A DNA stretch of 61,741 bases, filler included, from Hausera hauseri (Eukaryota), in the NCBI GenBank assembly GCA_046269625.1. It is 11 parts of 11 records of this genome, joined end to end, with 100 filler letters (N's around TTAATTAATTAA, not from the genome) between each part and the next. Parts side by side here need not be neighbours in the genome. Positions count along the whole stretch, not along the records: positions 11,922 to 18,134 come from JBJURY010125095.1; 10 more parts are not named here. The stretch is one strand, 5' to 3'. Under the pieces are notes generated by a model that did no database searches, was not told the origin of the DNA, and worked only from the letters and a program-made list of their open reading frames with translations. The position numbers and the translations under genes were made by a program. Positions 2,597-52,073 of this stretch are shown here, in pieces (the first letter of the stretch is position 1; each line of letters starts with the position of its first letter).

Positions 2597-3262
2597 ATGA
2601 ATGGACCAGCTCTTCTCCTGCTACTTCTCACAGGTAACGTTCTAGTAAATCTAGACACCATGCACCTAAACTTGACTCTGTCCTGAGTGGTCTCCCTGCC
2701 TTGTCTCCAGCCTGTGTGGTGAGAGGAGGAGTTCTGCAGTTTCTGAACATGATCGTTTGTGTTCAGCCTGACGTCAGTCCTCTGGCGTACAGTGACTACG
2801 GCTGCTACTGTGGCCACAAGGGAACTGTGGCTCCAGTGGATGAAGTGGACAAGTAGGTAACAAAGCATTTCTGTTTTAACCAAAGACTCTGTAAAATGTT
2901 TGATTCATCTTCAGGTGCTGTCAGACTCATGAAAGCTGCTATGAGAAAAGCAAAGTGACTCCAGGATGCACATCTATCTTTAAAAATCCTTACCTCCTCA
3001 TTTACAAATACAGCTGTACTGATAAACAGGTGACTTGCTCAGGTAAAGAGTAACTAATTTTTTATTTTATTTTTTAAAATTTGGGCGGACTGCATCTTGA
3101 GGCTGACCTCTCCTGACTTGCAGATTCTAATGGAAAGTGCCAGGCTATTGTGTGTGTGAGTGTGACCAAGCTGCGGCTCAGTGCTTCGCCAACAACACTT
3201 ACAACCCTCAAAACCAATACCTGGATTTCAGTGCCCGCTGTGAAAACACAGACTCTCATTAA
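2597..3262 (+). pseudogene. Secretory phospholipase A2 group IB-like paralog, frameshifted in exon 4 (pseudogene or sequence error)
   Basis: Coding exons 2597-2633, 2711-2852, 2915-3042, 3124-3262, all GT-AG with the same phases as the neighbouring gene. Motifs YGCYCG and CCQTHESCY. An extra GT in the (GT)n run at 3150-3158 shifts the frame before CECD. AATAAA at 3304. Confidence 0.9.
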
Positions 3263-5753: not shown

Positions 5754-8700
5754 ATGAACGGATCAACTCTCCTTTTGCTTCTCACTGGTAAGAATAATAA
5801 CTCTGTACATAGTGAACTTTTAAAGCCACTATTTGAAATCAGTACCTGGTCTCCCACTCCCCTCCTCCACAGCCTCTGTGGTCAGTGGAGGAAATGTGCC
5901 TAAAGCCATGTGGCAGTTCGGGAACGTGATCAAGTGTTATCAGCCTGGTGTTAATCCTCTGGCGTACAACAATTACGGCTGCTGGTGCGGCTTGGGAGGA
6001 ACTGGAACTCCGGTGGATGAAGTGGACGAGTAGGAAACAAGATCAAATTATCATTATTGTTAGTTTAAAGAAACAAAACTCTGGTTGTTCTCTAACCCCT
6101 CGTTGTGCTCTCAGGTGCTGTCGAGTTCATGACAAGTGCTATGAAGCAAGCAGAGAGGTTCCAGACTGCTCAAACATTTCTACTCTTCCCCACATCCTGG
6201 TTTACAATTACAGCTGTTCTGATACACAGGTGGAATGTTCAGGTAAGGATGTGGTCTGAAGGAATTTTACAGATATTTAGTCTTAAAAATATGCATTAAT
6301 GAGGTGAAGCTTTATGTTTTTGATTTCAACTAAAAGAGTTTTGAATGTAAAACTGCTGCAATGTCCTACTCAGACCATGATTTGACAAGAACATTGATGT
6401 AGAACAATTAGACTCTGAGCAAGTTATAAAACTTTCTGATGTAAAGAAAAAAACAAAGTTTCTTTTTGAATAAAGTAGTGAGGTGGATTAAGAGGATATT
6501 CCATAAGAATCTTTCAGCTGGTGATACAAGCACTAAATTTGTTACAAATGAAGTTCAGGATTTACTTGCATGAGAATGTAGGTTATCCACCTTGAAACCC
6601 AAGATGGCCACCACTTTTCATGGCCATCTCTCAAATACAAAAACCCCTAAAAACTGTGTAGAAGTTCACATAACTGAAACATGTTAAAGATTTAAACATC
6701 AAAAAAAATGTATCCTGACTGGTAGAACTCAATGATGTCAATTAAATTCCAACATGGCCACCAGTTTTTAAGATGCCAGCTACTCCATGCCTCAAAATGA
6801 ATTGATATACTGTGGTCAAGCTCTATTAGTTTGTATTCTTTCATATAGAAGTGATGTCAAAGCACAACCAGGATACACTGGTTACATCACTGCTGTGACA
6901 CACAGCATGTCGGCTTCTAGAGTACTAGCTGTTGTACTGGTATACTCAATCTAGTTTATAGTACTAAGCCCCTGTATATATCTAATCTAAAAGCTTAGTT
7001 GTAGTATTGCAGTAAGATAACTGAACCTGAATTGACAGGATGTGGCAACGCGGTACAGCTGAGCCAAGGGTGACGGGGCTTGAGTTACACATGGTGTACA
7101 GATTGAACAGGGTTTTAATGCCACTGCATGAATGATCAGGCATTAGGAGTAGGGCTGCACAATGTATCAAAAATTTATCATCATCGCAATAACAGCCTGT
7201 GCAATATGCATGTCGCAACTGCATAAACTGCAATAAATGGTTAGCTTTAATGTTTGCATTTATGCCTTTTGTCATTCAGATGGAAGCTTGAAGTATTTCA
7301 GCAGTCAAATGAAGCCCTTTATATGTTTGGTCAACCAAGTAGATCTCTTGATATTTAAAAAAATATTTTAGGTTAGAATGGAAATGATTAGTTTTTTAGG
7401 TTGTTTTCTTGGCTTTGAACCCCAAAAGATAAACACTTCATACTTTTGTATTTGTTCATTTATCGCAAGTGATATCATCATCACAATATTAAACACTGTT
7501 GTCGCACATCGCAGGTTTTCGTAATATCCTGCAGCCCTAATTAGGAGCTTGTACCAGTTGTATCCCACATTCAAATGTGCTTTAATCTTTTTATTTTAAT
7601 TTTATATTAACCTTTAATCAACCAGACAAATTCCATTGAGATCACAGATCTCTTTTGCAAGAGAGACCTGGGCCAGGTGGCAACCTATTGTACATGTGGG
7701 GTAAACCAGAGTACTGGAGAAAACCCACAAAAGCAGGGATCGAAGCCAGGACCTTCTTACTGTGAGGTATCAGAGCTAACCACTGAGCTGTCATGGTGTC
7801 TGATTTTGTTAATGCCATTTTTATTTATTAGTACAGTTGGGTGATAAAAAGACCTTCAGTCTTTAATCACATAACTCAAGATGTGAGCCAATAATCCATT
7901 GATTTGTATTACAACAACCGACCAGAGGAAGTGCTGCCTCTGTCAGACAGATAAAAGAGGAGTTTAAGTTTCCCCTCACCTGTTATGAGCGCACAATGGT
8001 AGCCACAAATGTAGCACTCTTTAAGGCATCAACCTGCTGCTCATCAGCTTAGACCAGGGGACTTATTCCCATGTGCATGTGTTGTAGGACAAGAAAAGCA
8101 AGGTTGATGAGGCAAACTGAACTTGTCTGCATGAAATCAAAGACCATATAGTACCATTCTTCAGACAAGTGAATCCCTCTTTCAGCATTGGAAAGGGTCT
8201 TCCTTCCAAGCTGTCTGCATATGAGTTCAGGCAACAGGCAACACCTGCTCACCTGGGGTGGCTCTAAGAGGGTGAGGTGTGACAAGTTCTTTGGACCACT
8301 TTTACACCGACTGCCCAGAGTTGTCAGCAGTTGGTATAATGTGTCTGCCAAGGACAATGTAAATGCTACTGCTTCACTTTTAAGCATACACAGCTGAGCC
8401 TGCAAATGTCAGGACCAAGTATAGAACCTACCAACATGTGCAAGTCATGGCCCGATTCAAACATCACTCACATTTTGAAAAATGTATAATGGAAGCTGAC
8501 ATTACCATGTAAATCAATAATATGTAATAATGCACTTGTCTATCCTAGAGATACCAGATAAACACTCATATTGCATATTACATTTTATCTTCTAGTACTG
8601 ATAAAATGTACTATGCACATTATTACAGCTCTAATACATTTCTCTAAATTTGGTGGTCATGTACCCTGACATCACTTTGAAAACCTCACAAAAGCCTTTG

Positions 8701-11921: not shown

Positions 11922-11968
11922 TCATTGATGCCAGTACCCAGAGTGATCCGGAGGACCGAATCCTTCTC

Positions 11969-11981
11969 AAAAGGGGGAGAA
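11969..11981 (+). other. Polypurine tract of LTR retroelement (copy 1)
   Basis: AAAAGGGGGAGAA immediately before TGTTAC; preceding 40 nt nearly identical to 52771-52823. Confidence 0.85.
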
Positions 11982-12671
11982 CTGTTACGACTCCTTAAAC
12001 AACATTTTGGACAAACCCCTTCGTGAAAACAACATTTTGGACAAAACTCTTCGATAAGAATTTATTGATAAAAATGTACATTTACACTTCACATTAGTAA
12101 TGTTGATGACTATTAAATGATTTTGAACATTTTGTACATTTATGATTTTGAACATTTTGTATATTTGAAATGAAATAAATCATTATCTTTGCCCATTATC
12201 TTCTTATCTGTTATCCTTCATTATAATATGTTAAGTCCCACATGATGGACATCCCTATTTTCTCTGTATTTTGTACAATTGATGTACCCCTAACCTTGTT
12301 GGTGAACTGAGAAGATACGTGTTCAGTAGAATAAAAAGAAATATTGCGAATTGTGGAGTGAGAATTGTGGAGTTTGTGGAATTGGAATGAATAGTTGAAA
12401 CGATTTGTTAAAAAATTAGAATGAATTATATGAATTATTGAATTAAATTAATAAAATCGTTATGTGAATTATTATAAGTAGAAATAAATTATTATATCAG
12501 ATTAATTATTATATTTCCATGAAATCATTATAAATTTCGATTTGGAATATTGAAAATAAAGTTTGGAATATATCAGATTAATTATTATATTTCAATGAAA
12601 TCATTATAAATTTCGATTTGGAATATTGAAAATAAAGTTTGGAATTTCCAAACACAGTAACAAAAATAGAA

Positions 12672-12732
12672 TGACGTCATTTTATTTTTAAAATGACGTC
12701 ACTCCCAAAATAGAACCAGGTAACTATATATA
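12672..12732 (+). promoter_or_regulatory. LTR promoter: two CRE palindromes and TATA box
   Basis: TGACGTCA at 12672-12679 and 12694-12701; TATATATA at 12725-12732; a 44-nt GT-AG intron (12804-12847) follows. Confidence 0.65.
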
Positions 12733-12851
12733 CCGTTGTGAAGTTCTTACAACAACATTATCTTAACCTCAACATATTTAATTCTCAAACTTGGAATTCG
12801 AAGGTTAGGTCTTATGCTGAATTTTTAAATGATTGTGATTATGCTAGGACC

Positions 12852-12903
12852 ATGGCCGTAAACAATAATGACGCTTCTACTAGTTCGTTGGAATCAGTAT
12901 CGG
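12852..12903 (+). CDS. Common leader exon, 17 codons + 1 nt (MAVNNNDASTSSLESVS, phase-1 donor)
   Basis: Kozak-like ACCATGG; ends G|GTACGT in phase 1, matching the phase of all downstream cassette acceptors; same-length counterpart at 53834-53885. Confidence 0.75.
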
Positions 12904-15096
12904 GTACGTGTATTCTCCGTTCACTTATTTTTGGTTTTATTTTATTTTTGTTGTAAATTTGTATTGATAATAAAATCTTATAAAATCAAATTGGAACGGC
13001 GTGATGACGGACAAGACAGTGTAGACCATGAATTGAAAGTTATTTAAGAAAGTCAGAGGGACTCGGATATGTGATGCCATCAATTGAGGATAAACCTAGG
13101 ATGAAATGATAAAAGATCGAAAGATATTCGAAATGTCGGAAGAACAGAGATAAAGATAAATCCCTTGAAATTTCGAGAGTGGTTATGAATAAATGTGTTG
13201 ATAGCTATTGTGGTTTGATCATGATATTTACAGTATTGACGATTATTACGGTTCGGTCATAATGTTTACAGCATTGATGATTATTATGATTCGATTGCAA
13301 TATATTTAGAGTATTAGCGAAGAATTTATTCAGCACAAGGCTGATTAAAAACCGTTTCATTTTTATGAATTTTAGATTTGATTCAGAGTAAAATAAGATC
13401 TGATATTTGGAGGACGGAACCCTTTGATGACGTATCGTTATGGTAATAACTATGATTGCGATGAGGCATATGAATTCGATGATATTTGGTGAAGTCGGCG
13501 GAGACGATAAATTGTGCGCATCTATTTGTATGACCGGATTGTGTGCATTTATTTTGTGTTTACATTTAGTTTGATTCTTAGTATTTGATTTCGTGTCGAT
13601 AAATTTGAAGTGTCTGCATTCAAATAGATAAGTCGGCGATGTACACGTTTTGTCTCCAAGGCATGGTGTATCTCTACGCGGTCAGGATCTAAATATACTT
13701 GTTGATGGTCATTTTATAAATATGTATGTGCATATAAACGCGCATTACACGATACCGGATGAAGAAGCACATACTAGTTGAATATATGATACATTCGAAT
13801 CACAATATCAGGATACCGCACACGTTTTCTGGACTTTGTATTTTCTCTGAATAAAGATTTTAAACGAATATTTTCAGTAGCAGCAGGAATACTCAATTTC
13901 GTATGAAATACGATTTTATTGTCTTGCATTTTCTAAACCTTAAAGCAATCAATGTAATCGTCTCAACCCAAAACTATTTCAATCTTGTTGATTATACGGA
14001 AATAATACATGTCACTGAACTGTTCTTCGCGTGAAACACATCATGAGAGTGTGTAATTGCATGCTTCTAATGAACGACATTTGGGAAATTTATTCTACAA
14101 AATATTTAACTTGATATTTTGAGTAATCCCTGAAATTCTAACGATATCATTGATATCACCTGACCTTCCTGTATTGTTACTATGTTTTGTATGTATATGT
14201 GAATGTTCTGTAAATTTAATGATCCCATGATATTTGGTACGTTTGGTGCAAGAGATTGTTGCGACGTCTGGCATTCTGAGGAGGAGTTTTGGGGACTGGG
14301 ACTCCCTCATAAAACCCGACTTCAAATCTCTTTTGATTTTAAGAAGGAAGAGTACGCCCATGATTGGCACATTTTAGAGTTATGTAGCATTACTTGAATA
14401 CGTAAGGTGTTTAATTTCCTTAGTGTATTTCGTAATCCAAATGATTGAGTTGGTGATATACAAGATTCCAATAATCAATATTCGAGGTGTTTAATTGTTT
14501 TAGTGTATTGCGTAATCCATTTTTTGGCCCGGGTGTATATTGATTATTGAATTCAGGACAAAGACGAGATTATAAGATGATACGACAATACCCTACCTCC
14601 TCTTATTATTTATTATATGATTACATAGAATGAGCTCTCAGCCGCTGACTTCTATTACCATACTTAAGGATAATTCCCCTCACTGCATTTAAATTGACTT
14701 ATAACCGGGACAGGAATTAATATATTTCGATTAAATTACCTCAGAGGATAAGAAGGATTCATGATGATAGACGATATAGAAAAATTTCGAAAACAATGGA
14801 ACTCACAAACCTTCAGGTCAGGAGACAAACGGAGATACCCCGATCAATTAGCAAGGAGCAGGTGTATTGGGTAGAAGTACCTTATGTTTGAGAAAACTCA
14901 AGATTGGATCAATAACAGTAAGGTGAAACTGATTTAATGAAGAAATATATATTTATTTCGGACTCGTGAAAAATGATCTTTTTAAGCAGAGGAGTTTGGA
15001 TGAAAGCGAGTAATGGGAATGCGAACGGATGTGAATTATTTATATGTTAGGTACTGTTTAAGGTTACATTAACCCCTGTACCACCAACATATAAAC

Positions 15097-15114
15097 TGGT
15101 GCCCCGAGTGAGGA
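15097..15114 (+). other. Primer-binding site complementary to elongator tRNA-Met
   Basis: TGGTGCCCCGAGTGAGGA matches 17/18 to the complement of the vertebrate elongator tRNA-Met 3' end as I recall it (TGGTGCCCCGTGTGAGGA); first 15 nt identical at 55489. Confidence 0.82.
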
Positions 15115-15176
15115 CACCATATTGATAAAATGAACAATAATTTTAAATAAAATTGTTATATAAATTTGAAATTTAG

Positions 15177-15463
15177 ATGACGATCCATATGCACCATTGA
15201 AATGCGAAATATGTTATGGACTACTTGGGAGGAACTATGCGTTACTGCGATGTACGCATATTATGTGTGTTAGGTGCGCGGACCATTGGCTGTCAAAAAG
15301 TCAAACGTGTCCTTTTTGCAGAAGAAGGACCAGTTCCTATCAGTCCAGAGGGATAACTATAGTGGTAATTTATGATGGTGAAGAAGACGAGAATCCGGCA
15401 GAAGGAGACCAACATGACTTATATGTATATGGGCCTAACGGGCTAGTCTATATGCCCATTTGA
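15177..15463 (+). CDS. Cassette A: C3HC4 RING-finger terminal exon
   Basis: Acceptor atttag|, phase 1; CEIC..CTH.MCVRC..CPFC; in-frame TGA at 15167 and no in-frame ATG before the first Cys; AATAAA 15471. Confidence 0.9.
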
Positions 15464-15541
15464 TAATTATAATAAAGCTGTTTTCAAGATTGATTGATAT
15501 TGAAGAATTAGAATTGATAATATTGAAATGAACATATTTAG

Positions 15542-15783
15542 GATGTATCATATGTAAAAAACTAGAAGAGGATCAAAATGAAGGAATTCAATGCCCGCTA
15601 TGTGAGTTTATCGAAAAATTGGATCAGTCAGAAGATTCGTTCACATGCGCCTACTGCGAACAGGATGTGAGTTTGGGCCTGATGACCATGGACGATGAGT
15701 GTTTTTTGTTGTGTCCTGTATGTGCCCTGACATGTGATGATATATGGGAAATTAAAAATTTGGCAGGAATCCCTGACTTGTGA
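15542..15783 (+). CDS. Cassette B: four-CxxC zinc-binding protein terminal exon (not in ORF track)
   Basis: Acceptor atttag|, phase 1; GCIICKK..QCPLCEFIEK..FTCAYCEQ..LLCPVCAL..IPDL*; homologous to 56034-56254; AATAAA 15798. Confidence 0.85.
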
Positions 15784-15892
15784 ATAATTATGAGTTTAAT
15801 AAATCTTGGCATTTGAAATTTGTTTCACTAATTGGAAGAAATTATTTATAATGAAAATAGAATATAATAGGAATAAACTATTACTGTTTAAG

Positions 15893-16350
15893 GAAATGGA
15901 AACGGAAATAGAAACGGAAATGAAAATGGAATGGAAACCAAAAAATGCCCTATTTGCCTGGAAGAAGTAGCAACCCAAAAAACAATATTACCTTGCAGAC
16001 ACCAGTACTGCACAGCCTGTATCGATACCTGGATGATGGTACAAAATACCTGCCCATGTTGCAGAAGAGCATACGTTTTATGCTGGCTATGCTATCAACT
16101 GATATCCGACGACATTGTAGAACTCTCTTGCAAGCACACATTTTGTAAGGAGTGCATCAAAACCCATGTTGAAACATACCAATTATGCCCGTATTGCTAT
16201 GAAGACATTGATTACTATATGATAGAAGGGATGATCGTGTATCTGAACATTATTGAACAACCAACTATGACATTAGTGATTGATGAAGATGATGGCAGTT
16301 GGCCAGAAGCGTGGAGAAATCCACAACCATATATATTAGATATAAATTGA
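15893..16350 (+). CDS. Cassette C: tandem double RING-finger terminal exon
   Basis: Acceptor tttaag|, phase 1; two back-to-back C3HC4 RINGs (CPIC..CRH.YCTAC..CPCC, CWLC..CKH.FCKEC..CPYC); AATAAA 16355. Confidence 0.9.
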
Positions 16351-16400
16351 AATTAATAAAATTTATCATAGTGAGTTGCTTATTCTCTTTATTATTTAAG

Positions 16401-16696
16401 GTTATTTCCCCGACTTGAATTCCGTACCTGTTTTATCACACGGATTTCAACAGAAAGTAAATCACTATTATTCCATCTATAATCCAAATGGAAAATTCAC
16501 CGCAATAGGAAAAGAATGCACAATATGTCTCAACAATTACTCCACCAACCCAGTTGAGTTAATATCCTGCAAACACCAATTCTGTCGCTGCTGTATAAAG
16601 GAGTGGTTTATTAACAATAACACTTGTCCGACATGCCGTACAATTAACAAACTGTTCTTGTACGAATATAAATATTATACCATAAAGAATTTATAA
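16401..16696 (+). CDS. Cassette D: RING-finger terminal exon
   Basis: Acceptor tttaag|, phase 1; CTIC..CKH.FCRCC..CPTC; the frame has no ATG at all and an in-frame TAA at 16397; AATAAA overlaps the stop (16696). Confidence 0.9.
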
Positions 16697-16743
16697 ATAA
16701 AATTTGTTTAAAGTTCTGATTTTTGAAATATAATGCATTGTAG

Positions 16744-17966
16744 ACGAGATAAAAGAAATGAAAAAGGTTCAATTTCAAACTCCCAGATATTGCGAATATA
16801 CCAAATCAGTGCAACCTAATACAATACAGTACATCCTATGTTATCAGAATAGACAATTCGGACCAGCCTCATTCATTAAGAAACGGATAACCTACTCTAA
16901 AATGACAGTGTCAGACAGCTCCATGAAAGATACACAAAATAGAAAGATATCGTTTCTAGAACATCCAAATTCACCCGTCCCGGGAGAACTAGCTCAATTA
17001 TATGCCAACGCCGGATTATTCCGAACCACAGCAGGAGAGATAAAATGTTTATACTGTCAGGGAGAATTTCAATATGAACAATTAAAAAATAGACCGAAAG
17101 AAGAACATAAGAAACTGCGCGCCACTTGTCCCTACATACTAGATGTAGATGTAGGCAATATACCACTCATCGACACATTTACTAGGAAGCCCGACCTGGA
17201 TCCAGACGCTAAGTACGACGAAATAATATCTGCACAAATAGTTTATTCAATCGATAATATAGTAGCAGAAAATATACAATTAATATCGGATACAGTACAA
17301 GACAGAAAATTAACTTTTCAAGGGAATAGAAAAATGAAGCATTTGGCCCGACAAGGATTGATATCGATATTCAAAGAAGGAACACAATACGTCAAATGTA
17401 CTAAATGTCTTAAGGAAACATATTGGTTGGAAGAAATCGACCAGCGATGCCCGGCAGTGTTACATACCAACAAATGCGAGTACTCAGTATATAAAATATC
17501 CGATAATAATACTAAAAAACAATGTAGAATACAATTTAACACAGGAAAACTGTATGAATGTTATCAAGATAGTCCTGTGGCCATATCGGTAATATCAAGA
17601 CATCCTACCAAAAGAGAAAACATACTACAGTATATTAAACATCAAACGGAAACTCAGCCCGATTGGTCGCCAAATGTATTCGACCTGTGTCAAAATCTAA
17701 ATTTTATTGATCCAGAGAAAGAAAGAGAACCTGAGCGAAATATTCTTGACAATCTTTACCTTCGCGATTTGGAGTGTGTAATCTGCTACACGGATGTGGC
17801 ACAAGTTATCTTCTTACCTTGTGGTCATTTGAAAACCTGCGAAAATTGTTCAAGTCAAACAACAAACTGTCCGGTCTGTAGAAGCAACATAGAGAGACGA
17901 GTGACGTATTTTCAGTTCTCGGAAGAAATTAGTGAAATAACTTTGACAAATATGGACCTTGACTAA
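16744..17966 (+). CDS. Cassette E: inhibitor-of-apoptosis-like protein (BIR, degenerate BIR, RING)
   Basis: Acceptor ttgtag|, phase 1. BIR1 RKISF..AG..CLYC-x16-H-x6-C; second BIR-like RKLTF..CTKC..H..C; IAP-type RING CVIC..FLPCGHLKTCENC..CPVCR. No internal intron needed. AATAAA 17988. Confidence 0.92.
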
Positions 17967-18041
17967 TAATTAATGTGAATTTATTTGAATAAACATTATT
18001 TACGAATTTGTTGAGTTAAAGTTAAAATAGACTTATTCTAG

Positions 18042-18134
18042 AATCTTCGATTATCGATAACATGACTTTGCCCAACCTCAACGACTGGATAATCCAAGTG
18101 ATGACGATAAAGAATCAACCACCTAAATTAGCAT
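18042..18134 (+). CDS. Cassette F: start of a further phase-1 exon, truncated by contig end, product unknown
   Basis: Acceptor ttctag| about 50 nt after the IAP AATAAA; phase-1 frame ESSIIDNMTLPNLNDWIIQV... is open to the contig end (only about 30 codons). Confidence 0.55.
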
Positions 18135-18234: not shown

Positions 18235-18400
18235 TCCTAGTGTTGGATTTGGAATATTATTTAATTTATGTACTATTGTAACATCTGCAATGTGGTTGTC
18301 TGGTAAATCTTCAGAACTATATGCAATGTCATGTTTTAGTGCTGCAGCATCTACTCGATTTATTGGTTTTGACCATTCATGTGTGTAAGGTTCCACCTTA
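18235..18400 (-). mobile_element. Parvovirus-type PLA2 (PLA2X) domain fragment, Polinton/adintovirus-like
   Basis: KPINRVDAAALKHDIAY..HIAD matches the viral PLA2 DxxAxxHDxxY motif; truncated by contig start. Confidence 0.75.
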
Positions 18401-20237
18401 CAAAAAAATACTATTAACAAAATCAAAAAAATAACAATCGACAATATCACCGATTCATCCTAAGTAAAAAATACTAAAATTAAAATTTCTTAACATTTTC
18501 ATGAATTCATCTATACAAAAATAAAGATAGCAGAATGAAAAGAGGAGAATCACAAGTGCCGAAGTGACCAACACTTTGTGATAAACAACAAAAATTTGTT
18601 TAAATCCACAGTTTAAAGCTAGTTGTTTTATAATCAAAAAGAATTATTTAAAAAATCTGAAAAAGAATTTTTCGAAAAAACAATTCCAGAAAGTTCCGAA
18701 AAACTATCATTAAACATTCTCAAAGTATCGTCTGTTCGCCACTACAAGAACAAAACCACGACCAAACCTGGTGAACCCATAATCAGGGAACAGGAGAAGT
18801 CAAGTGTGCCTGTTCCGCCTCCCGCCAAGCCCAAAATTGGTGAACCAATCACCCGAAACGAAGGCACGGCAATCACGTCGAAACCGGAAGCCAATTGCGA
18901 AGTCAGATTCAACAAAGTCATCAATTTGACATCGGGGTATTGGATCCCTACGTGATATTAACCAGTACTGGCGAGAATACAGGACCCAGGCGACAGTTAA
19001 GTCTTAACCCTCAAGCCAGACCAGCCATGCTTGACCCGGTGAGTCACCGTCTCCCGCGGAAGACGACGCTGTAACCCCGACAAGCGAGCCCAGTACCGAT
19101 CCTATTCGGACTTTCTGATGGTACGGGAGCTGTTGCAACGGAGCCGTTTCGTACGGCTCTTTGCCAGGTTGGGACGAGATGATTCCTACTCCTTACCTGT
19201 GGGAACCCTCCACCGGTTTTACGACGACGGAGAAAATTGACGACTTTTCGATTCATCGGTTTTCCTGCCGGACTTCCTAAGACTTATGGCGGCCGCCGAC
19301 TGCCTTTTCGAATCGCTGACTCCCTCAGAGAGCCAGTTGATTCCGGAACGCCGAATCCCTGAAAAGCGGCGGACAAGGACTTCGAGCTCTGATGAAACAC
19401 CAATTCCGTGTCGCAGACGCCGCTTAGATCCGACACGACGGAAAGCCGCACGGATGGATTCAAATTCGGACGATACTCCGACTTGTCCACGCCGAAGTCC
19501 AAGGATTAATCCGGCCCTGTCCTTACCCGAATACTCCTACGCCTCGGCGGACGATTCACGAGAATTTAATAAAAATTACTCTCGTTATTTTTTCGTCTTC
19601 CATATTTTTGTTTCAGTCGTTTTATTCGACTGTATTTACATGTTTTCCCGTTTTTTGATTGAAAGTTCCATCCACAAGGAGAAGAACTCTAAAATGGTGG
19701 CAGGGGTTACCGCATTAACGCCTTATAACACAAACGCAGCCTTTGAAATAAATCCGTCTCAAACACTGCACAAAACCTTTGATAGCATTCAGGCTCAAAT
19801 TCACACAAGTGCCGTAGAAACTAATCCGGTCACATTCGTGCATCACCAAACATGATCACGTAATACCCACAAACAGTTGTATCACCAAAATCAACTGCAA
19901 TCAGAAATTTACAACGCGTGACAGTGAACAAGTGTTAAAATATTCTAGCACTAACACATGCGTCAACACCGTCAAATCGGAATACAAACCCGATTATACG
20001 AACCGCTACAAAATAGCACACACAAGCAAAAAGTCGCTATTTAACGATTCACCCAATCGTCAGTCGACTGAACTCGCCAAACGAAGTACAACTCATTGTA
20101 CAAAATTGGCGTCATACGAAAGCTCATCGCTTTCCATCCACTCTAGATATGTCGCGAATGCTGGGAGTTTTAAACCAACAATATCCCGAGCATACATTGC
20201 GCAATCAATACAATTTTCATAGACAATAACATTATAC

Positions 20238-23200
20238 TGGGGGCTCCAAAACTAAAAGGAGGCGTTGACATCCACAAGCCCTACAAAAAAGCTGAAACTG
20301 CTTCAGCATCACCGGCTAAACCACCCTAATTCGCGTGTCCCACCTTCATAGGTTCAGACGGAACTGCATTGAAGTGGTTCCATGTGTTTGAAACATGGGC
20401 TACTCAATGCAGCATCACGAGCCAACTAAACAAGGCCTTAACATTAATACAATACCTGCAGCCAACAACGCTTGCAGCAACAACGGATCTGGACACGTTA
20501 TTGTCAGATGAAAAGCCGTTTGGCAGAATCAAAGCATATCTGCCATCCCAACAAGACCAGTTCAACTTGGTTTTAACCAAGCGACAGACATGGAATTTGA
20601 AACCTCCTCTGCTTCAAAAGTTACGCTCAGACTTGAGCAATGCTGAGTTGGACCTCCAAAGCAACCAGCACATACCACGGCGCTACTTCCTGAGTAGTTT
20701 GCCAAAGCAAATTCAAGCCGCCTATGTGCTATTACCGCCCGACACAACATTGAACGATATGACATTAAGCTGACAAAATATACGAGTGCATTAAAGGCAC
20801 CGTAGAATCTGCACTAACGCAAAACATAAACTCCGTCATAGCGGCCTAGCACAATCAGTTGGACACGATTATTGTCGCCCTGTAGGCACTTGTAACGCAC
20901 AAGAATCTGCCAGCCAAGGACAGACCGTCATCTCGGCGCCAATCCCAAAGAGAAAGTAAGGCAAATTTTCCAAAATTTGCCATTTCCACACTCGATTTGA
21001 CGAATCCGCCTACAAATCTTATCTTGGTTGCCAATTCGACAAGTCGTCGGCAAATATAAAAATGCAACACTTGCATTTATCACAATCATTTCGGTCCGGA
21101 TGCAAAATCTGTCGACCTGGCTGCATATTTTAGAAGCCATCAAAAACTAAATGAGCTCGGCGACCAACGGCACGTCGACTGGAAACCCAATCACTACAAC
21201 TGCCGTACACAAATAACGAACGCATTGTCGATGCTATTTTTACTCTCAAGGCGGAGCCACTACACTCTGACATTTCGATACAACTAGATTTTCTAATCGA
21301 CAATGGTGCAGCTATATTGCCGATACTTAGCGCATGCGCTAGACCTACGCTGGTGTCACATGCATCACGCAATGCTGCCAGTGGCACGCGAATATCAACC
21401 ACAGGTACTCTGTACCTACAATTTTATCTCCAAGGCCGAGCATACGCTTGGTCATTCATATTGGCCGATGTCATGCAACCAATACTTGGTTCTGACTTCC
21501 TAGATCACTATGATCTTACCGTGGATTGCCGAAATCAACATCTCACCAGCGGGAGCAATCCATTACCTCCACCCGCACTCACGCTAACTATAAATGCGGT
21601 CACGGGCATAAAAATTGCCAATCCCATTGACATCGCACCATTGCTCCAAGCGCAATATCCTAACTTGTTGAAACGCTCAACACAACCAACTCAAAAAAAG
21701 GTGAAAACATCATCCTTTCTCGTCACATCATGTGATCGACCGATTCGGCAACCCCGGAAGGAGCTTGACCCTGTCAAGAGAGCAGCCGCGGAAGCCGAAT
21801 TCCGACACCTCGAAGAAGCAGGCATCATACGCCGCTCTACATCGCCATGGACATCACCATTGCACATGGTTCTTAAAAAGGACGGTTCATACCGGCCTTG
21901 TGGTAACTATAGAATGTTAAACAACGTCACCATCCACGATTCATACCAAACACCGTTGTTAACAGATATATTGCATCGTCTACATGGTGCCGCAATATTC
22001 AGTACAATTGATCTGGAAATGGCATACCACCAGATCCCATTTTCTAACAAAGACATTCCAAAAACGGCCGTAATAACGCCTTTTGGTTTGTTCGAGTATC
22101 TATGCATGGCCACAGTTCTCTTCCTGAACGGCTAGAAACCATCAAACAAATACCGAAGCTATTCACAGTGACTGGACGTCACAGTTTCCTTGGCACGATC
22201 AATTTCTGCCATCGCTACATTCCACACTGCTCGGAAATCCTTTCACCTCTATCTGCTCGAAACCAAGGACCCAAAAAATGCCAGGTAAACTGGAGGGATT
22301 AAAATGAACAGGCATTTGCTTTTTCACATACCTACACTACACTATCCTAAACGAGATGCACCTTTCATCTTAACAACAGATGCATCTACAATCGCTGCAG
22401 GCGCCATGTTTGCTCAATCAATAGATATCAAAAATGCTCCCATTGAATTTATTTCCCACAAATTCAATTCGGCTGTGCAACGCTATTCAACTTTCAACCG
22501 AGATTTACTAGTCATAATTCTTAGTGTCAAACACTTCACACATTTCCTCGAAGGAAATGTGTTCACAATCCGCATGGATCACAAACCGCTCATTCGCATG
22601 ATGAGTATGAAAAACCCATCTCCTCGTCAAGAGCGACACGTTATTTCTGTCAAAATTCTTATTCCAGATAGAACACATAACTGGAAAAGATAACAGTTGC
22701 TGATTTCTTTCCCAGAACTTGGATATCGACAATATCCTTTGACCAAATTTTCACGGAAGACGTTCTCCGATCGCACCCTCCACATGAAGATGATGTTACG
22801 TTCTTCAAAACAGTAGACACAAAGGATGGAATACACTACAATACCATCTTTAATGGTTGTCGACGCCAAATTCTTGCAGTGAACCTACGGAAACAGGCGT
22901 TTGACACCATTCACAGCATTCATCACCCTGGATAAAAAGCCACAGCTCGCCTATTAAGCAGTAGAGTTTGTTGGCCTCGCATGCTACGTGACATAAAGCA
23001 GTGGACAAAAGAATGCTCACTTTGCCAACAGTATAAATTCAACAAGACTACAACCACTAATCCTACACTATCCTACTGGCTCACGGTTTGAAACTATCCA
23101 CATGGATATAGTAGGACCACTTTCTGAATGTAACGCATATCAGTACATCCTAACCATTCTCGAGTGGAAAACAAGATGGCCCGAAGCCATTCCAATCCGC

Positions 23201-23357
23201 CAAATAACAACGCAAAGCGTTGTGTCTGTATTGCTATAAACATGGATTTCTCGATTTAGAGTACCTAAAAACATTATAAAAGATCAAGGTACCCAATTCG
23301 AATCAGCCATGTTTAACCAATTAACCAAATCGCTTGGTTCAAAGCATATACATACAT
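20238..23357 (+). mobile_element. Decayed Ty3/Gypsy LTR retrotransposon gag-pol
   Basis: PBS-like TGGGGGCTC (tRNA-Pro) at 20238 after AACA; gag PTFIG..WF..FE; protease FLIDNGA; RT SPWTSPLHMV..YRPCGNYR..TPFGLFEY; RNase H LTTDAS; integrase HMDIVGPL and DQGTQFES; many stops and frameshifts. Confidence 0.93.
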
Positions 23358-23457: not shown

Positions 23458-23850
23458 TGTAAAGCATCCAAGAGTCCATAAATATCCGAAACTGGAAACG
23501 TGAACTTCTCCGTAATTGTGTTCAACTTCCTAAAATCCATGCACATGCGAATAAACCCGTCGTTTTAGGTATCACCACCAGTGGTGTATTCCAAGGGCTT
23601 TGTCATGTCCTGATAATTCCGCTGTTCAGAAATCGGTCGATCAATCTTTCAACCTTTGGCTCCAAGTGAATCGGAAGTCTCCTGGGCGGCTGCGCAGTTG
23701 GGTCGCCTGTAGTTTCAATGTAATGTTGCACGATCTTTGTATGGCCTATGTCAAAAGCTGAAACCACAAAAATATCACCGTACTTTTGAATCATCCGCTT
23801 GAGAGATAGGTGTGCTGCAAAAACTTCCAAGGCCAACTTTTCGTGAAATT
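23458..23850 (-). mobile_element. Gypsy RT N-terminal fragment of a different family
   Basis: QHYIETTGDPTAQPPRRLP..SGIIRT*QSPWNTPLVV..MCMDFRKLN. Confidence 0.85.
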
Positions 23851-24289
23851 AGGTTGAACGCAGATACACGGTCAAACGAACCCATAACAGTGCAATCCAA
23901 AATCTTGATGGAACAGAATATCTTTATTTTCAAAAATTTAAAAAATCATTAGATCCATATTATGCTACCATGAAGCATATTTCTATGTACACATGTCTTT
24001 ATATTTATATATAAAAATTACGCAGATTAACACACAATGAATATTGAATTTTAAAGCGATCATACCAAAACAAACACAAAATCAAAAAAAAGATAACAAA
24101 CGCCAAACGATTGTCGAAATAAGTGTTACACATAATCAGAGAGAATGAAATACAATGTAGATACAGTTAATGAGATCAACGTAGACTAATTAAAATAAAA
24201 TGAGCTAAAATGACTAAAGGAGAGAGATGAGATTTATTAACAAATGTTCCGGCTAGCGTCTAATGTTTTGAATGTGCGAGACGATGCTA

Positions 24290-27200
24290 TTGGTAGGTCT
24301 ATTCACTGGCAGTTATAGTTTCATTCCAATTGTATTTTCGCATGAGATTTGATATGATAGTATTCTTCTGTCTGCTAAGAGGCAACATTGAAAAAGTGTG
24401 AAATGATGCAATTTTCTGATTGACAAAAATATAATTTGCTAGGTCACTCTGCCTGGATGGAATAAGAATAACTGAAGTCTGGAACGTCAAAATATGATGG
24501 ATCTGTTAATGGTGATTATATGTTGGAGATTTGGTTCATAATTGTGAATAATGACTTTTTTGACATGTAGGATCGTATGTCTAATACATAGACGTTGGTT
24601 CCAGCACTCTGACGAGAAACCGAGCTGCGCCAGCGACCATGGCACCACATCACCTCCCCTGTGTAGAAAAGAGACTGTAAAAGTGAAATGGAATGATGAA
24701 GATAATATGGATGAGAGCAATTGAGTCGTGAAAAGGAGCAATGTTTGGTGCCTATTCCGTTTTGGTATGAGTTAAGCGTTGTGTGCCATCAATAAACTTT
24801 TCTCTGCTGTACATATTGAATGTCACTTTACGTACCTTACTCGATGGATTAGCGCTGGGCTGTTGTGTGATATTTTGTGATGGGAGTGATAGTAAAGATG
24901 AGTCAAGCAAGAAAGGAGAGGAATGTTGTGAGCATGATGACGGACAGTGAAGTGAGACGGATGGAGGAAATGATGATGATTGAGTGTAGTCGAGTAGTGA
25001 TTGCTGCATCGACGCGAAATCGTTTAAAGTTAGTAGAATTACTAGCTGAGTTTGAATTAAGTGTAGAATTGTTATCTGGAATGTCGTCGATGAAAAAGGC
25101 AGGCTTCAGATTCGAAATGTGGGACTCTGTACGGTTTATCTTGGCATAAGATTGTTGCTGTGTGAAATGAAAGATTCAGCAGTTTGTACGGGCCAACATA
25201 CTGAGGTTTAAAACCAGAAGAAGATTGACCTTTTAACCACACAAACTTGGCGGAGTATAGATCCTTCGGAATGTAGGATTTGTTGTTATTAAAGAGGCGG
25301 CAGAATGAATATGAGCTGACCTCGACGAAATGAGATTGCGCTGCACGAATGTTCTTATCTATGGGGTTGTCGTCGAGATCAGAAAGTTCAAATAAAGCCC
25401 GAATTGGAGTCCCGAAAAATGCTTCGGCTGGAGCAGAACCGGTAGTGGTCAAAGGTGTGTTGCGCCAACCTAGCAGAACAAAAGGTAGAATGGACGTACA
25501 ATTACGATTAGTATCAGCCACGATTTTTAGAGAAATTTTCATTGTGCGATGAAACCTTTCGAGAAGGCCCTTTGCTTGGGAATGATATGAAGTAGTATGA
25601 AAATGGGACATCCACAAAAGTTTGACAAGTGATTTGAAAAGTTTAGACTCAAATTATGGACCTTAATCCGTTATTATGTACCGTGGGGAACCAAAGCGAT
25701 TGATCCAGATTTTAATAAAAGCGTCGGCTACTGAATCAATGTTTGATGAACGAAGAGGAACGGCTTCAGGCCAACGAGAAGCACGATCCATCATGGTAAG
25801 TATGTGCTGATATCCGTTGTCGGCATATAAAGGACCAACTAAATCAAGGTGAACTGTATGAAAGCGTGATGTACAGGGAAAGTGGTAAAGTGGTGATTTA
25901 AGATGTTTGTTAATCTTGTATTTTTGACAGGCAATGTATTCTTTGACCCAGTCTTGTACATCTTTGCGCATTGACGGCCATACTACATGACGTTGAAGCA
26001 GGCGAAAAGTAGCTTTGGAACCTGGATGATGGAGTGAATGCGCATGAACAAAAGCTGGCTTTTGTAAAGGTGGTGCTAGGATAACCTTTTTATTGCCTGT
26101 ATTAGATGTATCAAAAGCTATTCCATCAATGATCTCGTAGGATCTGAAAGAACTAAGGAGATCAACGGATGGTTGATTGGCCTTTAAGACTTCAGATGAG
26201 AAAATTGGCTCAACTGTAATGGATCTAACCGACCTCGATAGAAAGTAAGCTACCAAGTTATCCGTGCCTGAGATATATTCCAAAGTAAAACTGAACGTTG
26301 ATAGGTATGATATGTGTCTCTCTTGCCTTCCTGATAGCTCTTTTAACGACATGATGTGCGGCAGAGGCTTATGGTCAGTTTGAATTACGAATGGACGAGA
26401 GAGAAGTAAGTGTTTGAAATGTTTTACTGCCAGAACTATGGCAAGTAACTCGCGATCAAATGTGGAGTAACGGCTCTCAGGTTGTGTTAGTTTCCTAGAA
26501 TAGAATTCTAATGGCTCGTCGACACCATTAGAGATCTGGTGTAGTACAGCACCAATAGCTGTGGTAGAGGCATCGGTTGTAAGAATAAGATCTGCCTTGG
26601 GTTTTGGATAAGCCAGTATTTCAACTGTTTTAAGACCCTCACGTAAATGATCAAATTTGGTTGCCAAATGAGGAGTCCAGTGGATCAACTGTCTCTTTTT
26701 TCCTGAAGATAAATGTGCGAAAGGTGCCGTAAACTCAGAGCAATGAGGCACGTATTTGTGGATGAAATGGAGTGTGCCTAAAAAACTTCTCATGTCAGAG
26801 GTAGTTATTGGTAGAGTTATGTTCTTTAATTGTTGTAATCGATCCGGTTGTGGAGAGTGGCCGTTAGGAGTCATGACATGGCCTAGAAAATTAAAACGAT
26901 TTTGAAAGAAATGACACTTGGCGAAATTGACTTGCAAATTGCTATGATGTCATCTGTGAAAGATAACACGAAGGTGTTCCTGATGCTGTTTGACAGACGT
27001 AGAGGTAACTAGTATGTCATCAATATATGGATGAGCGAAATCTAGACCTGAGAGTACAGTATCAATGTGCCGTTGGAAAGTTTAAGAAGCACTACGTAAA
27101 CCAAATGGCATAAAGATATATTAGTAGAGGCCAAATGAAATAATGATAGCAGTTTTTGGAATATCATCATGTGAAACAGGAATTTGATGATATACTTTAT

Positions 27201-28272
27201 GCAAGTCAATTGTGGAGTACGTGTTAGTGTTGGTAAGGCTGTGCAGGATGTCATTTATAAGAGATAAAGAATACGCATCCATGACTGTTTGACTATTTAA
27301 CTGCCGATAATCACCGCATGGTCTGTATGTGCCATCTTTCTTCGTCACAACATGCAAAGGCGAAGCACATGGTGATTTGGATCGTCGATTTGAACTCTGA
27401 TTCAACAGCTTTTCGTCTGCGAAGTGAAAGTGGCCTTACCTTTTGTTTAATAGGTTTTTGGTGTTCGGTGACTATGTGGAGATATGTTGTAGAATGCGGC
27501 TTGAAATTGATCTCCTTCTTAAGAGTACGGGAACAAGAAGTTTTAATGTAGGATTTAAGGTCAGAACCCAACGATAAGAATGATGATGGCATATCATTAT
27601 AAGAGTCAGTTGCTGTAATTGATGTAGAATGACTAAATGCTTCATTAACGACATTTGGTTCAGCCGATTGTTTCAAGATTGCTCCCACTGGACGAGATTA
27701 AAAATACTGATAAATTGTTAAGTGTGTTGTTATCATCCGATGAACAGAATGTCAAATTGATATTTGAATGAACAGAGGAGGAAAAAGTGACCGACTGGTC
27801 GTTTGGTGAGCATTTGCTAGAATTTGCAACGAAATTTCTGCGCAGGATGCATTTATGCTGGCAGTCGACTAACAAATCGTATGTAGCTAGGAAATCGGAG
27901 CCTATTATTGGCGAAAATTCTCCTGGTAGGTTGGAGAATGTAAAGAACAGTTTTGTGGTACCTACAATGTTCAAAGGTTGACCACAGGCAGTGAAGAGTG
28001 GAGGAGAGAAAACTGTGTTAGATGTAGGAGCAAGAGACAAAGGAAGAAGTGAAAAAGCAGCTCCTGAATCAATAAGGAAATCTACGTGTGATGTGTCCCC
28101 AAATAATAGATCAGCTTTCAACAGGAAGACTGCAGAAGCGGTGTTGAAACGGCCAGTAGTTTGAACGATATTGCCTGTAACAGAATGTGCCGTGGCATCT
28201 GGTGGCATTATTGGTTTTTTGAGACTTGTTGGTATAAGGCGGAAGAATGGTGAGTACGCGGAGGCGAAGAAA
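24290..28272 (-). mobile_element. Decayed Ty3/Gypsy element: protease, RT, RNase H, integrase, PPT and 3' LTR
   Basis: FLIDSGA, YRPCGDYRQLN, YIDD about 27017-27028, LTTDAS, HLDLVGPL, ERFHRTMK. PPT AGGGGAGG (24653-24660) then TGTGGTG starting at 24649. Left LTR boundary uncertain. Confidence 0.93.
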
Positions 28273-30118: not shown

Positions 30119-30801
30119 CTACAAATCCCTGGGCAAATGGCACTGATCTTTGACAAACCACGTCCTGAGATCTGGATATGTCTTGTTCTTCTGATCTGTC
30201 CATAATTTCTTACAGACCTCACAGAATATGTTCTCACCAATAGATCGATACTTTGATTTCTCCATTAACATGGCCAGGTACTTTTGCTTGTCTTTAGAAA
30301 GATTCAATAAAAACGTCGCCAGATCTTCCGGAGTCTTGAAATCCGAAGCGTCAATAAAAGTATCGGGTGGGAAGAATCGTTTATAATCTGCACCTCCACG
30401 AACAACGGGTATCACGTCAACATTTTTAAAAATCTTGAAGAATTTTTCCGTGACGTAATCTTTACAGAGCGTGTTTTCAAAAGCCAGGTAGAAAAAATAT
30501 GATCTTGACAACATTGGCAAACACAAACTATCGTCTATAGCACGTTTGTTCAATCCTTTGGAGCAGTTATAAGTTCCACAGCTGCCGAAGACGTGGACGT
30601 CAAGTGACTTCTGCATACGTCTGACGTATTCATCTCTGCCACTGGACGTCCGGCAGTTACTAACGAACCAAGCAGCTGGAAATTTTTTGCTGTTGACTAT
30701 TTCGTGATAGTTCTTTTGAGGTAAGGGCTGTCTTGCTAATTTTCCATACATGTGTACAATGTCAGAGTCCAAACGGTAGGTCATTGTCCAATTGAACTGG
30801 C
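30119..30801 (-). CDS. Alpha-1,3-fucosyltransferase (GT10), last coding exon
   Basis: Acceptor ttctccag| at 30802-30803; FNWTMTYRLDSD, AWFVSNC, YFFYLAFENTLCKDYVTEKF (alpha-1,3-FucT motif), FIDASDF; open to stop. Confidence 0.93.
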
Positions 30802-31549
30802 CTGGAGAAAAAAATCTCGTAATTACTGGGAGTCGTTTTTTCCAATTCAAGTGTTAAAAAAGCTGTCAATTTAAATAAAACAGGGAGATATTGAAAATTA
30901 GAAGAAAGAGTAGAGTAAAAGGCGAAGGATGATTTGAGAAATAAAGAAAGAACAAAAAGAAGCAGAACACATACAGGAAATACAGGAATGTTTTATCAGT
31001 AATAAGATATATCCACACGATTTGAGGCGTATAATTTAATGTGGAGTTAGTGTCAACATGCTGTTCTTTTACCTACCTCACAGAACTAGGTCATGCTGTC
31101 GGCGTTACTTTCTCAGTTTGTCTAGCACCCAATTTTTAGGCTGTTTTGGCTATCTTCGTAATGGTCCCCAGATTTGATTAGGTTCTTTTTTTCTTTTTAA
31201 TTTTCTATCGTTATTTTCAGTGCTATCTTTAGTGTCCTCTTTTTTCATATTCCAACTGGTGCCCATCATAAAGCCATCTTCGAAATACGTTTTAGTTAAT
31301 TATATGTCGTGACTATTAATTCTACTGTATAATTGTTGCCATGTCATTTTGATGACATTTACTAAATACTTCCTGAATAGAAATGGCATGTGGTATGAAA
31401 TCGCACAGAATATGTCTCCCAATTTAACGAGAAAGTCCAGGATATATCGTTCTAGCCACTCTCCATCTTTCTGAATAGCAGAGTTGACAATGCACAATTT
31501 CGTTTTTAATCGTTGGCTTTGAAAATACTATTATCTAATTCATTATCAT

Positions 31550-46530: not shown

Positions 46531-47950
46531 TCCTTCGTTCCTTCGTTCTTTCATTCGTTCCTTCGTTCGTTCGATACTTCTTTCCTTCCTTCCTTCGTTT
46601 CTTCGTTCTTTCTTTCCTACTTTCGTTTGTTCCTTCTTTTTTGCGTTCCTTCTTTCATTCGTTCCTACTTTCTTTCGTTCCTTCGTTCTTTCGTTCGTTC
46701 GTTCGTTCCTTTCTTCCTTCCTTCCTTCCTTCCTTTGTTCCTTCGTTCCTTCGTTCCTTCTTTCGTTCGTTCCTTCATTTTTTCTTTCCTTCGTTCGTTT
46801 CTTTCTTTTTTCCTTCCTTTCTTCCTTCGTTCTCTCTTTTGTTCCTTCGTTCTTTCGTTCGTTCTTTCGTTCCTTCGATCCTTCTTTCCTTCATTCCTTC
46901 GTTCCTTCGTTCTTTCTTTCGTTCTTTTGTTCGTTCCTTCGTTTTTGCATTTGTTCCTTCGTTCTTTCCTTCTTTCCTTCGATCGTTGGTTCCTTCTTTC
47001 CTTCCTTCCTTTGTTCGTTCGTTCGTTCGATCTTTCTTTCGATCGTTCGTTCGTTCCTTCTTTCCTTCGTTCCATCTTTACTTCGTTCGTTCCTTCCTTC
47101 ATTTGTTCGTTCGTTCCTTTGTTCATTCATTCGTTCGTTTATTCGTTCCTTCGTTCATTCTTTACTTCTTTCCGCCGTTCCTTCGTTTCTTCGTTCTTTC
47201 GTTCGTTCGTTCTTTCGTTCTTTCGTTTTTTTCTTCTTTCCTTCGTTCCTTCATTCCTTCTTTCGTTTCTTCGTTTGTTCTTACTTTCTTTCGTTCCTTC
47301 GTTCCTTTGTTCTTTCGTTCGTTCCTTCGTTCTTTCGTTCCTTCTTTCCTTCCTTCCTTCGTTCTTTCGTTTCTTCGTTCGTTCGTTCCTTCGTTAGTTC
47401 GTTCGTTCGTTCGTTCTTTCTTTCGTTCCTACTTTCTTTCGGTCCTTCGTTCCTTCGTTCTTTCGTTCATTCCTTCGTTCGTTCGTTCCTTCTTTCCTTC
47501 GTTCCTTTGTCCTTCGTTCCTTCTTTCGTTCGTTCTTTCGTTCCTTCGATCCTTCTTTCCTTCTTTCTTCATTCCTTCGTTCTTTCTTTCGTTCTTTCGT
47601 TCGTTCCTTCGTTTTTACGTTCGTTCTTTCGTTCGTTCCTTCGTTCCTTTGTTCCTTGGTTCCTTCCTTCCTTTCTTCCTTCTTTCGTTCGTTCGTTTGA
47701 TCTTTCGTTCGTTCGTTCCTTCGTTCGATCATTCGTTCTTTCGTTCGTTCCTTCATTCCTTCTTTCCTTCGTTCGTTCGTTCCTTCCTTCCTTTCTTCCT
47801 TCCTTCCTTCCTTCGTTCTCTCTTTCCTTTTTTTGATTCTGCGTTCGTTCTTTCGTTCGTTCGTTTTTTTTTCTTTCTTTCGTTCGTTTTTTCGTTCCTT
47901 CTTTCATTCGTTCTTTCGTTCGTTCTTTCGTTTTTTCGTTCCTTCGTTCA
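46531..47950. repeat. 1.4-kb compound tetranucleotide microsatellite (TTCG/TTCC/TTCT)
   Basis: Almost A-free plus strand built of TTCN units. Confidence 0.98.
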
Positions 47951-47976
47951 TTTTCTTTGCACATTTTTCATATTGG

Positions 47977-52000: not shown

Positions 52001-52073
52001 CAGGAATCTGATGGTAGGCTTTATGAAGATCGATGGATAAAAATATGGTGTTGCCATTGAGTCTGTGTAGGAT
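49063..52073 (-). mobile_element. Decayed Ty3/Gypsy element related to the contig-4 element, with 254-bp 3' LTR (49063-49316)
   Basis: MPFG..YIDD, RNase H, integrase. LTR termini TGTGGTG...CACCACA; PPT GGGAGGGGAGGA at 49321-49332. Confidence 0.92.

Follow-up and report, generated by a model that had tools for sequence, protein, structure and literature searches.

A Putative LTR Retroelement Family Carrying RING and IAP-Like Cassettes, Probably Expressed as Alternative Terminal Exons

Two contigs with the same cassette array

The stretch of DNA analyzed here (61,741 nucleotides, from Hausera hauseri assembly GCA_046269625.1; referred to as the window) consists of 11 contigs chained by linkers of N's, such that neighboring contigs are unlinked. 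Our subject is a likely long terminal repeat (LTR) retrotransposon carrying a packed series of small open reading frames (ORFs), here called cassettes; one copy fills one contig (JBJURY010125095.1, positions 11922–18134; copy 1). A second contig (52174–57098; copy 2) has the same layout, with a polypurine tract (PPT), an LTR-like block, a primer-binding site (PBS), and cassettes A to D in the same order. All features of both copies described below are on the plus strand.

In copy 1, cassette A (15177–15463) encodes a C3HC4 RING domain with an acidic tail (Pfam zf-RING_2, E 2.7e-9) and has an AATAAA at 15471; cassette B (15542–15783; AATAAA at 15798) has four CxxC pairs and is a non-RING, predicted zinc-binding cassette belonging to no known family; cassette C (15893–16350; AATAAA at 16355) is a tandem double RING with a conserved tail (two Pfam stretches, E 4.5e-17); cassette D (16401–16696; AATAAA at 16696) is a RING cassette (Pfam E 3.2e-11); and cassette E (16744–17966; AATAAA at 17988) is IAP-like (inhibitor of apoptosis protein), with one BIR and a C-terminal IAP-type RING. 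Cassette F (18042–18134), which has no Pfam match, is present only as a start truncated by the contig end. A sequence-only reading of this contig had described six cassettes forming a RING/IAP battery, which holds for A, C, D, and E but not for B, for which no Pfam family scores above cut-off; five of the six are complete, and F is a mere 30-codon stub.

The same reading proposed splice acceptors at the six cassette starts, and an AG is present at every one. Phase 1 gives long frames of 94, 79, 151, 97, and 406 codons for A to E, as had been claimed, with phases 0 and 2 shut within 0 to 26 codons, and in cassette F phase 1 alone stays open as far as the contig end. The probability of finding all five in phase 1 is about 0.025 given the AG phases within these coding regions (63/101/48), or 0.004 if phases are uniform. 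The AATAAA signals expected within about 25 nucleotides (nt) of the stops of A to E are also there, starting 8, 15, 5, 0, and 22 nt after them; shuffling of the spacers gives probabilities of 0.04 to 0.12 each and a product of 5e-6, in a test whose window size was taken from that earlier claim. In cassettes A, B, and D, an in-frame stop precedes the exon start by 1 to 10 nt and the first CxxC is reached without any in-frame methionine, and cassette D contains no methionine whatsoever, both as previously noted.

Conservation of cassettes and signals

In copy 2, the cassettes lie within 55544–57078, with starts at 55544 (A), 56034 (B), 56316 (C), and 56768 (D), all in phase 1. Amino-acid identities between the copies are 68% (A), 44% (B), 50% (C), and 52% (D), and synonymous sites are saturated, with proportions of synonymous differences (pS) of 0.80 to 0.98 and of nonsynonymous differences (pN) of 0.18 to 0.33. 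The first AG past the upstream stop is nonetheless in phase 1 in nine of nine complete cassettes (4/4 in copy 2), and an AATAAA lies no more than 22 nt past the stop in 8/9 (no more than 10 nt in 3/4 of those in copy 2); in the other, cassette B of copy 2, it is 14 nt before the stop. Because these signals persist despite saturated synonymous sites, we conclude that phase, acceptor, and AATAAA have all outlasted saturation. At 10/10 acceptors, position –5 is T and position –3 is any base but G, compared with 62/270 background AGs, although this motif was picked after inspection.

An in-frame methionine between the upstream stop and the zinc domain is absent from five of the nine complete cassettes (A in both copies, B and D in copy 1, and C in copy 2). 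Its presence varies by copy, and each of A to D is without one in at least one copy. Purifying selection acts on the proteins that the cassettes encode, although several cassettes have no start of their own. Further comparisons come from two public runs (X1 and X2), consisting of contigs of unrecorded kind that were aligned to the element contigs. Among the variants listed for run X1 (22 cassette-region rows), 11/18 coding variants are synonymous, and a variant at –3 of acceptor A retains YAG.

Another cassette (G) is at the 3' end of the internal region. In copy 2, a RING ORF (52398–52829; Pfam zf-C3HC4_3, E 4.1e-8), broken by one in-frame stop, reaches through the PPT, and copy 1 contains the C-terminal end of the corresponding 3'-terminal ORF (11924–11998), crossing the PPT into the LTR. 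The peptide frame is the same in both copies, and two of four differing codons are synonymous. As this RING ORF crosses the PPT, cassettes are present at both ends of the internal region, and the proposal that they occupy the position of gag is not established, with gag-pol unlocated and the 3' end occupied too. An AATAAA at 12174–12179, within a 16/17-nt match to copy 2 (53069–53085; E 0.096), is a candidate polyadenylation signal for cassette G.

The LTR-like blocks and the element family

The PPT, 3.1-kb TGTT...AACA block, and PBS reported in copy 1 are all present. The 11-nt PPT (11969–11979) is identical in copy 2 (52810–52820), and in both copies a 3-nt spacer separates it from the TGTT that begins the block. 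The block is 3,107 nt in copy 1 (11983–15089, with AACA at 15086–15089) and 2,658 nt in copy 2 (52824–55481, with a TATA at 53488), and in both the PBS begins 7 nt downstream of AACA (15097–15114 in copy 1; from 55489 in copy 2), with its first 15 nt the same. Compared with tRNA 3' ends in PMC13524379, the first 12 nt of the PBS match 11/12 with two listed tRNA-Met(CAU) ends, and are equally close to two tRNA types listed as 'other'; LTR-PBS spacers are 1 to 6 nt in six element rows of that source, making the 7 nt here slightly long. A pattern search for tRNA ends returned four phage tRNAs (one Thr and three Leu) and did not identify the primer.

Each element contig (5 to 6 kb) contains a single LTR-like block, and a PPT-LTR-PBS order in one contig likely reflects either collapse of two LTRs or a tandem array. 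LTR interiors of the two copies are unalignable apart from short matches. Tandem duplications are present in the upstream parts of both blocks (76 nt at 12493–12644; 64 nt at 52840–52967), but are mutually unrelated in sequence. The PPT and PBS flanking a block in two copies suggest that the element is likely an LTR retrotransposon. Neither element contig contains gag or pol. The adjacent Gypsy pol contigs were considered as the source of pol and rejected, as their PPT and LTR start differ and mark them as members of another family. These decayed Gypsy pol copies are at 18235–23357 (+), 23458–28272 (–), and 46531–52073 (–); the two minus-strand copies are 65% alike and have their own PPT and short LTR start, unlike those of the RING element. 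A search of Rfam gave no matches at E 0.1, and the motif preceding the PPT had no matches among viral contigs or among JGI metagenome contigs.

The two copies and the two runs show that the element is a dispersed, diverged multi-copy family. The copy 1 contig is matched by 4,429 records in run X1 and 831 in run X2 over a range of identities, those in X1 being mostly 85 to 99% identical; the spread of the 4,429 X1 records across identity bands indicates a diverged multi-copy family. None of the matching records spans the whole copy 1 stretch, and summed depth in the runs gives no copy number. One run X2 contig, differing at 21 positions in 176 nt, joins the PBS to cassette A. In run X1, summed depth peaks at 11922–11982 (88,585 at 11963), and in run X2 the same PPT precedes differing LTR starts; together, these observations indicate that many subfamilies share this 3' end.

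A candidate promoter and leader exon

Upstream in the copy 1 block is a candidate promoter (12672–12733) with two TGACGTCA palindromes, which we take to be CRE-like (cAMP response element), and a TATA core. A similar TATA core is present in copy 2 (53468–53529), and is common to three other contigs with unlike flanks. Downstream, the proposed ATG exon (12852–12903) is 52 nt (17 codons plus 1 nt) and ends in phase 1, as described, with a donor GT at 12904 and an AATAAA at 12969, 65 nt on. Copy 2 has a leader-like stretch of the same 52 nt (53834–53885; 17 codons plus 1 nt), with an AATAAA 57 nt downstream, such that both copies have a stretch starting with Met-Ala behind the TATA core and ahead of an AATAAA. 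No canonical donor follows this stretch in copy 2 itself. However, a sister of copy 2 (one run X1 contig, depth 10.3, with 3 substitutions in 333 nt) has a canonical GT immediately after the leader. The chance of hitting one named site is about 0.009, and a donor in sister copies had been predicted beforehand. Run X2 contains no records over the copy 2 leader region.

Between the promoter and the leader of copy 1 is a candidate 5' untranslated region (5'UTR) intron (12804–12847; 44 nt with GT..AG ends) containing three upstream ATGs. Its counterpart in copy 2 is a 43-nt GT..AG piece (53585–53627) holding the sole upstream ATG, which is missing from the same run X1 sister contig that has the leader GT. 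GT..AG ends occur in 8 of 2,615 such 43-nt windows, and loss of the piece fits reverse transcription of a spliced RNA. A second strong donor-like GT, with the top score in that LTR, is directly behind the 43-nt piece (within 53585–53636), in an arrangement resembling a recursive splice site. Schistosome genes typically have small introns at the 5' end (PMC3254664). Among the joints listed (15/16) for runs X1 and X2 on copy 1, none starts from 12903, but because even cover across the LTR suggests genomic DNA, their absence is uninformative about splicing.

A model for cassette expression

We consider it probable that a single LTR promoter and leader serve all of the cassettes, the leader being spliced to alternative terminal exons. 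The earlier form of this proposal is supported in each sequence-level test, by the phase, acceptors, and AATAAA signals kept in copy 2 and by the sister-copy donor, and is qualified by other phase-1 ATG-donor pairs. Under this model, transcription would start just past the TATA core, near 12725, and removal of the short 5'UTR intron would eliminate the upstream ATGs. The donor at 12904 would then be joined to acceptors 2,273 to 5,138 nt away, with one cassette per message; use of an acceptor would define the last exon and activate the AATAAA behind it, such that each message ends at the cassette's own signal. The acceptors are weak and AT-rich, which would allow distal cassettes to compete. 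In unspliced RNA, U1 bound at the donor would permit read-through both of the AATAAA lying 65 nt beyond it and of the internal signals, yielding genomic RNA, and the AATAAA upstream of the TATA core (12174 in copy 1, 53069 in copy 2) would terminate the transcript of the 3'-terminal cassette. The resulting proteins would be small RING E3 ligases and an IAP-like protein, all headed by the same 17 residues.

We also favor, but only narrowly, a broader interpretation, namely that this is a high-copy animal LTR retroelement lineage with a complex-virus-style unit, in which one LTR-coded leader feeds at least seven separately polyadenylated alternative terminal exons, located at both ends of the internal region. 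The resulting set of E3 ligases, together with an apoptosis inhibitor, could be expanded by capture of intronless ORFs between a phase-1 AG and an AATAAA, with unspliced RNA still making the genome.

Several observations weigh against these interpretations. Splicing is deduced from sequence. Cassettes C and E in copy 1 and B and D in copy 2 have a methionine that could start them unspliced, and the pyrimidine content before the acceptors is just 0.45 to 0.65 in 7/9. Homology of the leaders is suggested by length, phase, and position together with one contig at depth 10.3, in LTR interiors that do not otherwise align. Copy 1 has other ATG-open phase-1 donors at 14918, 14237, 13443, and 14487, and copy 2 has one at 54797; scored with a rough frequency matrix, the donor at 12904 ranks third in its LTR. 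The 43-nt skip, which shows 4 nt of microhomology, may simply be a deletion. The cassettes are not linked to a second LTR, to a target-site duplication, or to gag, pol, or env, and the internal AATAAA signals, at least six of them, would burden the full-length RNA, which the model explains by analogy alone.

Alternative explanations

The alternative that survives best, although we regard it as unlikely, is that a shared upstream exon feeds the alternative terminal exons but that another phase-1 LTR donor, or several, is used. The further ATG-open donors in both LTRs and the lack of alignment between LTR interiors speak for this, but it does not account for the recurrence in both copies of the 52-nt length, the Met-Ala start, the place behind the TATA core, and the trailing AATAAA, nor for the GT lying exactly at the leader end in the sister copy.

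Slightly less likely still is an operon-like array resolved by spliced leader (SL) trans-splicing, in which a message would end at each AATAAA and an SL added at the next acceptor would provide the start codon. AATAAA-to-acceptor spacings of 40 to 95 nt at 7/8 junctions are in keeping with schistosome polycistrons, whose spacings are below 200 bp (PMC3254664). However, the flatworm SL ends in ATG (PMC3795323), which would set phase 0, and phase 0 shuts within 2 to 43 codons at all ten acceptors; A, B, and C moreover have no phase-0 AG ahead of the zinc domain in either copy. Trans-splicing would also leave the conserved 52-nt phase-1 leader unexplained.

We find it improbable that each cassette is a small gene of its own, with spacer promoters, internal or non-AUG starts, and a shared phase arising by chance. 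Tight packing with AATAAA at the stops does resemble large DNA viruses, 4/9 cassettes have a usable methionine, and 48% of AGs inside these coding regions are in phase 1. Nonetheless, in 5/9 no methionine precedes the zinc domain, cassette D of copy 1 is devoid of methionine, the AG and its phase persist across saturated synonymous sites, and the AATAAA-to-acceptor spacers are just 40 to 191 nt. Equally improbable is an LTR inserted in, or mis-joined to, a cluster of host genes or an endogenous DNA virus, an idea that draws on the one LTR-like block per contig, the absence of linked pol, and the short contigs of a mixed assembly. Against it, the block lies between a PPT and a PBS in two copies whose interiors cannot be aligned, a coding frame crosses the PPT, and the X2 contig joins PBS and cassette A. 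A solo LTR would bring neither PPT nor PBS.

Predicted proteins and their relatives

Cassettes A, C, D, and G have C3HC4 RING domains scoring above the Pfam cut-off and are predicted to encode small RING E3 ubiquitin ligases. In cassette B, 8/8 cysteines are conserved between the copies (four CxxC pairs), and an Atlas search gave weak matches to unnamed clusters only. Cassette E has a divergent BIR (27.4 bits; Pfam cut-off 22.9) and a RING (E 3.3e-14), and its top match among solved structures is cIAP1 (3t6p; E 5.8e-18), with IAP chains heading the list. We therefore describe it as IAP-like, with a putative role in caspase inhibition. An AlphaFold2 model of E from a 4-sequence alignment had a mean pLDDT (predicted local distance difference test) of 36.3, too poor for use in a fold search.

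Close protein relatives of cassettes E and C appear to be few in the searches made. Relatives of E at 45 to 54% identity are present in ENA assemblies; of 14 matches, two are full family members and a third is in the same cluster. Protein-guided scans with E found a family locus in 0/132 and 0/135 stretches, and a similar scan with C gave 2/44, which were rejected because they match the RING part only (37%) and are on giant-virus contigs. A profile search with cassette A yielded none from 19 candidates. Among the 150 matches listed for the cassette C profile, P0018 alone covers most of the profile; this third relative of C, on a contig of only 756 nt, has a Met start after the first two RING cysteines.

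Relationship to known systems

In the adenovirus major late unit, and in Drosophila mod(mdg4) and lola, one or more common 5' exons are joined to many 3' exons with separate polyadenylation sites. The proposed likeness to adenovirus is apt as to one promoter and many last exons, but adenovirus is a DNA virus with a noncoding leader, whereas here the leader is coding and inside the LTR, and an unspliced genome must cross the same region. With a coding leader inside the LTR, the element is closer to the leaders of errantivirus env and the foamy virus donor. The terminal exons of mod(mdg4) and lola encode zinc fingers and their constant part a BTB domain, and both are host genes; here, the unit is in a retroelement.

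IAP/RING cargo in an LTR element is already known from the planarian giant Gypsy-like element Burro (GYPSM1; PMC6431247), which also resembles the present element in its high copy number and its very long LTRs, the latter implied by size figures. The likeness is one of description. In Burro the BIR and RING domains are within one 4,873-residue Gag/Env/Pol polyprotein (PMC6431247), whereas here they are in separate ORFs with their own acceptor, stop, and AATAAA; with each cassette stop-closed on both sides, the element is not a Burro-type polyprotein element. By analogy with the reported function of the Burro1 B-IAP (PMC13465017), the cassette products would likely blunt host apoptosis or anti-transposon defense, protecting the host cells of the element, or remove restriction factors.

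Other retroelements provide partial precedents for expression. The env of insect errantiviruses is a downstream ORF without a start that acquires a short upstream peptide or partial start codon by splicing, as proposed here, but env is a single target that ends in the 3' LTR, in contrast to at least six acceptors with their own polyadenylation signals (bioRxiv 10.1101/2023.08.03.551782). Short gag RNA of the Arabidopsis Ty1/Copia element EVD couples splicing to internal polyadenylation in a manner comparable to our model, with U1 on the donor allowing read-through of unspliced RNA; EVD, however, has a single intron with a single internal site, serving Gag, and no gene battery (PMC5580714). Foamy virus similarly has its major splice donor in the LTR upstream of the polyadenylation signal, which is suppressed by U1 on the donor, but in that source the donor is not described as closing a coding leader for separately polyadenylated cassettes (PMC3694450). 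Bdelloid LTR elements have an extra ORF3 said to be expressed from a spliced message, with one extra ORF per element (PMC5408684), and clam IAPs are intronless, retroposed host copies that are scattered (PMC7831173), unlike the ordered, conserved battery here.

The view that this architecture is undescribed appears to hold for the combination, although its parts have precedents in Burro, errantiviruses, Copia, and foamy virus. A literature search covering listings and the opening parts of abstracts found no retroelement in which a single leader serves many cassettes with separate polyadenylation; PMC6238403 does not mention RING, PBS, or extra ORFs, and the main text of PMC13524379 has nothing on RING, BIR, accessory genes, or splicing. 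If the model is correct, a retrotransposon expresses many genes as complex viruses do, in contrast to the reviewed giant elements such as Burro with its one polyprotein, and has a plug-in route for cargo capture. It would also provide a set of small candidate E3 ligases, plus an IAP-like protein, for probing which host defenses a transposon disables, and would make testable the passage of an unspliced retroelement genome past at least six selected polyadenylation signals. Because cassettes without starts are missed by gene callers, such batteries may be common but unseen.

Origin of the contigs and other features of the window

Observed/expected CpG ratios of the window contigs range from 0.29 to 1.23, and these ratios, together with a snail-like fucosyltransferase on one contig, show that the contigs derive from more than one organism. 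The two element contigs have ratios of 0.99 and 0.93, and as they show no CpG depletion, the host of the element is likely an invertebrate, perhaps a snail or flatworm. Assignment to a snail from the fucosyltransferase contig was dropped, because the CpG ratios indicate a mixed assembly. That contig (CpG ratio 0.69) has an alpha-1,3-fucosyltransferase ORF at 30122–30853 (–), whose top matches are in pulmonate snails at 54 to 61% identity.

A TBP-like ORF is present at 58331–58822 (+; Pfam E 7e-10), and the same contig holds broken fragments resembling a PolB2-type region found at 43700–44560 (Pfam E 6.6e-7); the stretches concerned span 43122–44560 (–) and 60523–61741 (–). These are likely decayed Polinton-like or other DNA-virus-like elements. 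The contig at 1–11821 has a vertebrate-like CpG ratio of 0.29, and within it an exon at about 6100–6256 (+), which presumably encodes part of a protein resembling secreted phospholipase A2, is duplicated, with a copy 67 to 75% alike near 2736–3049.

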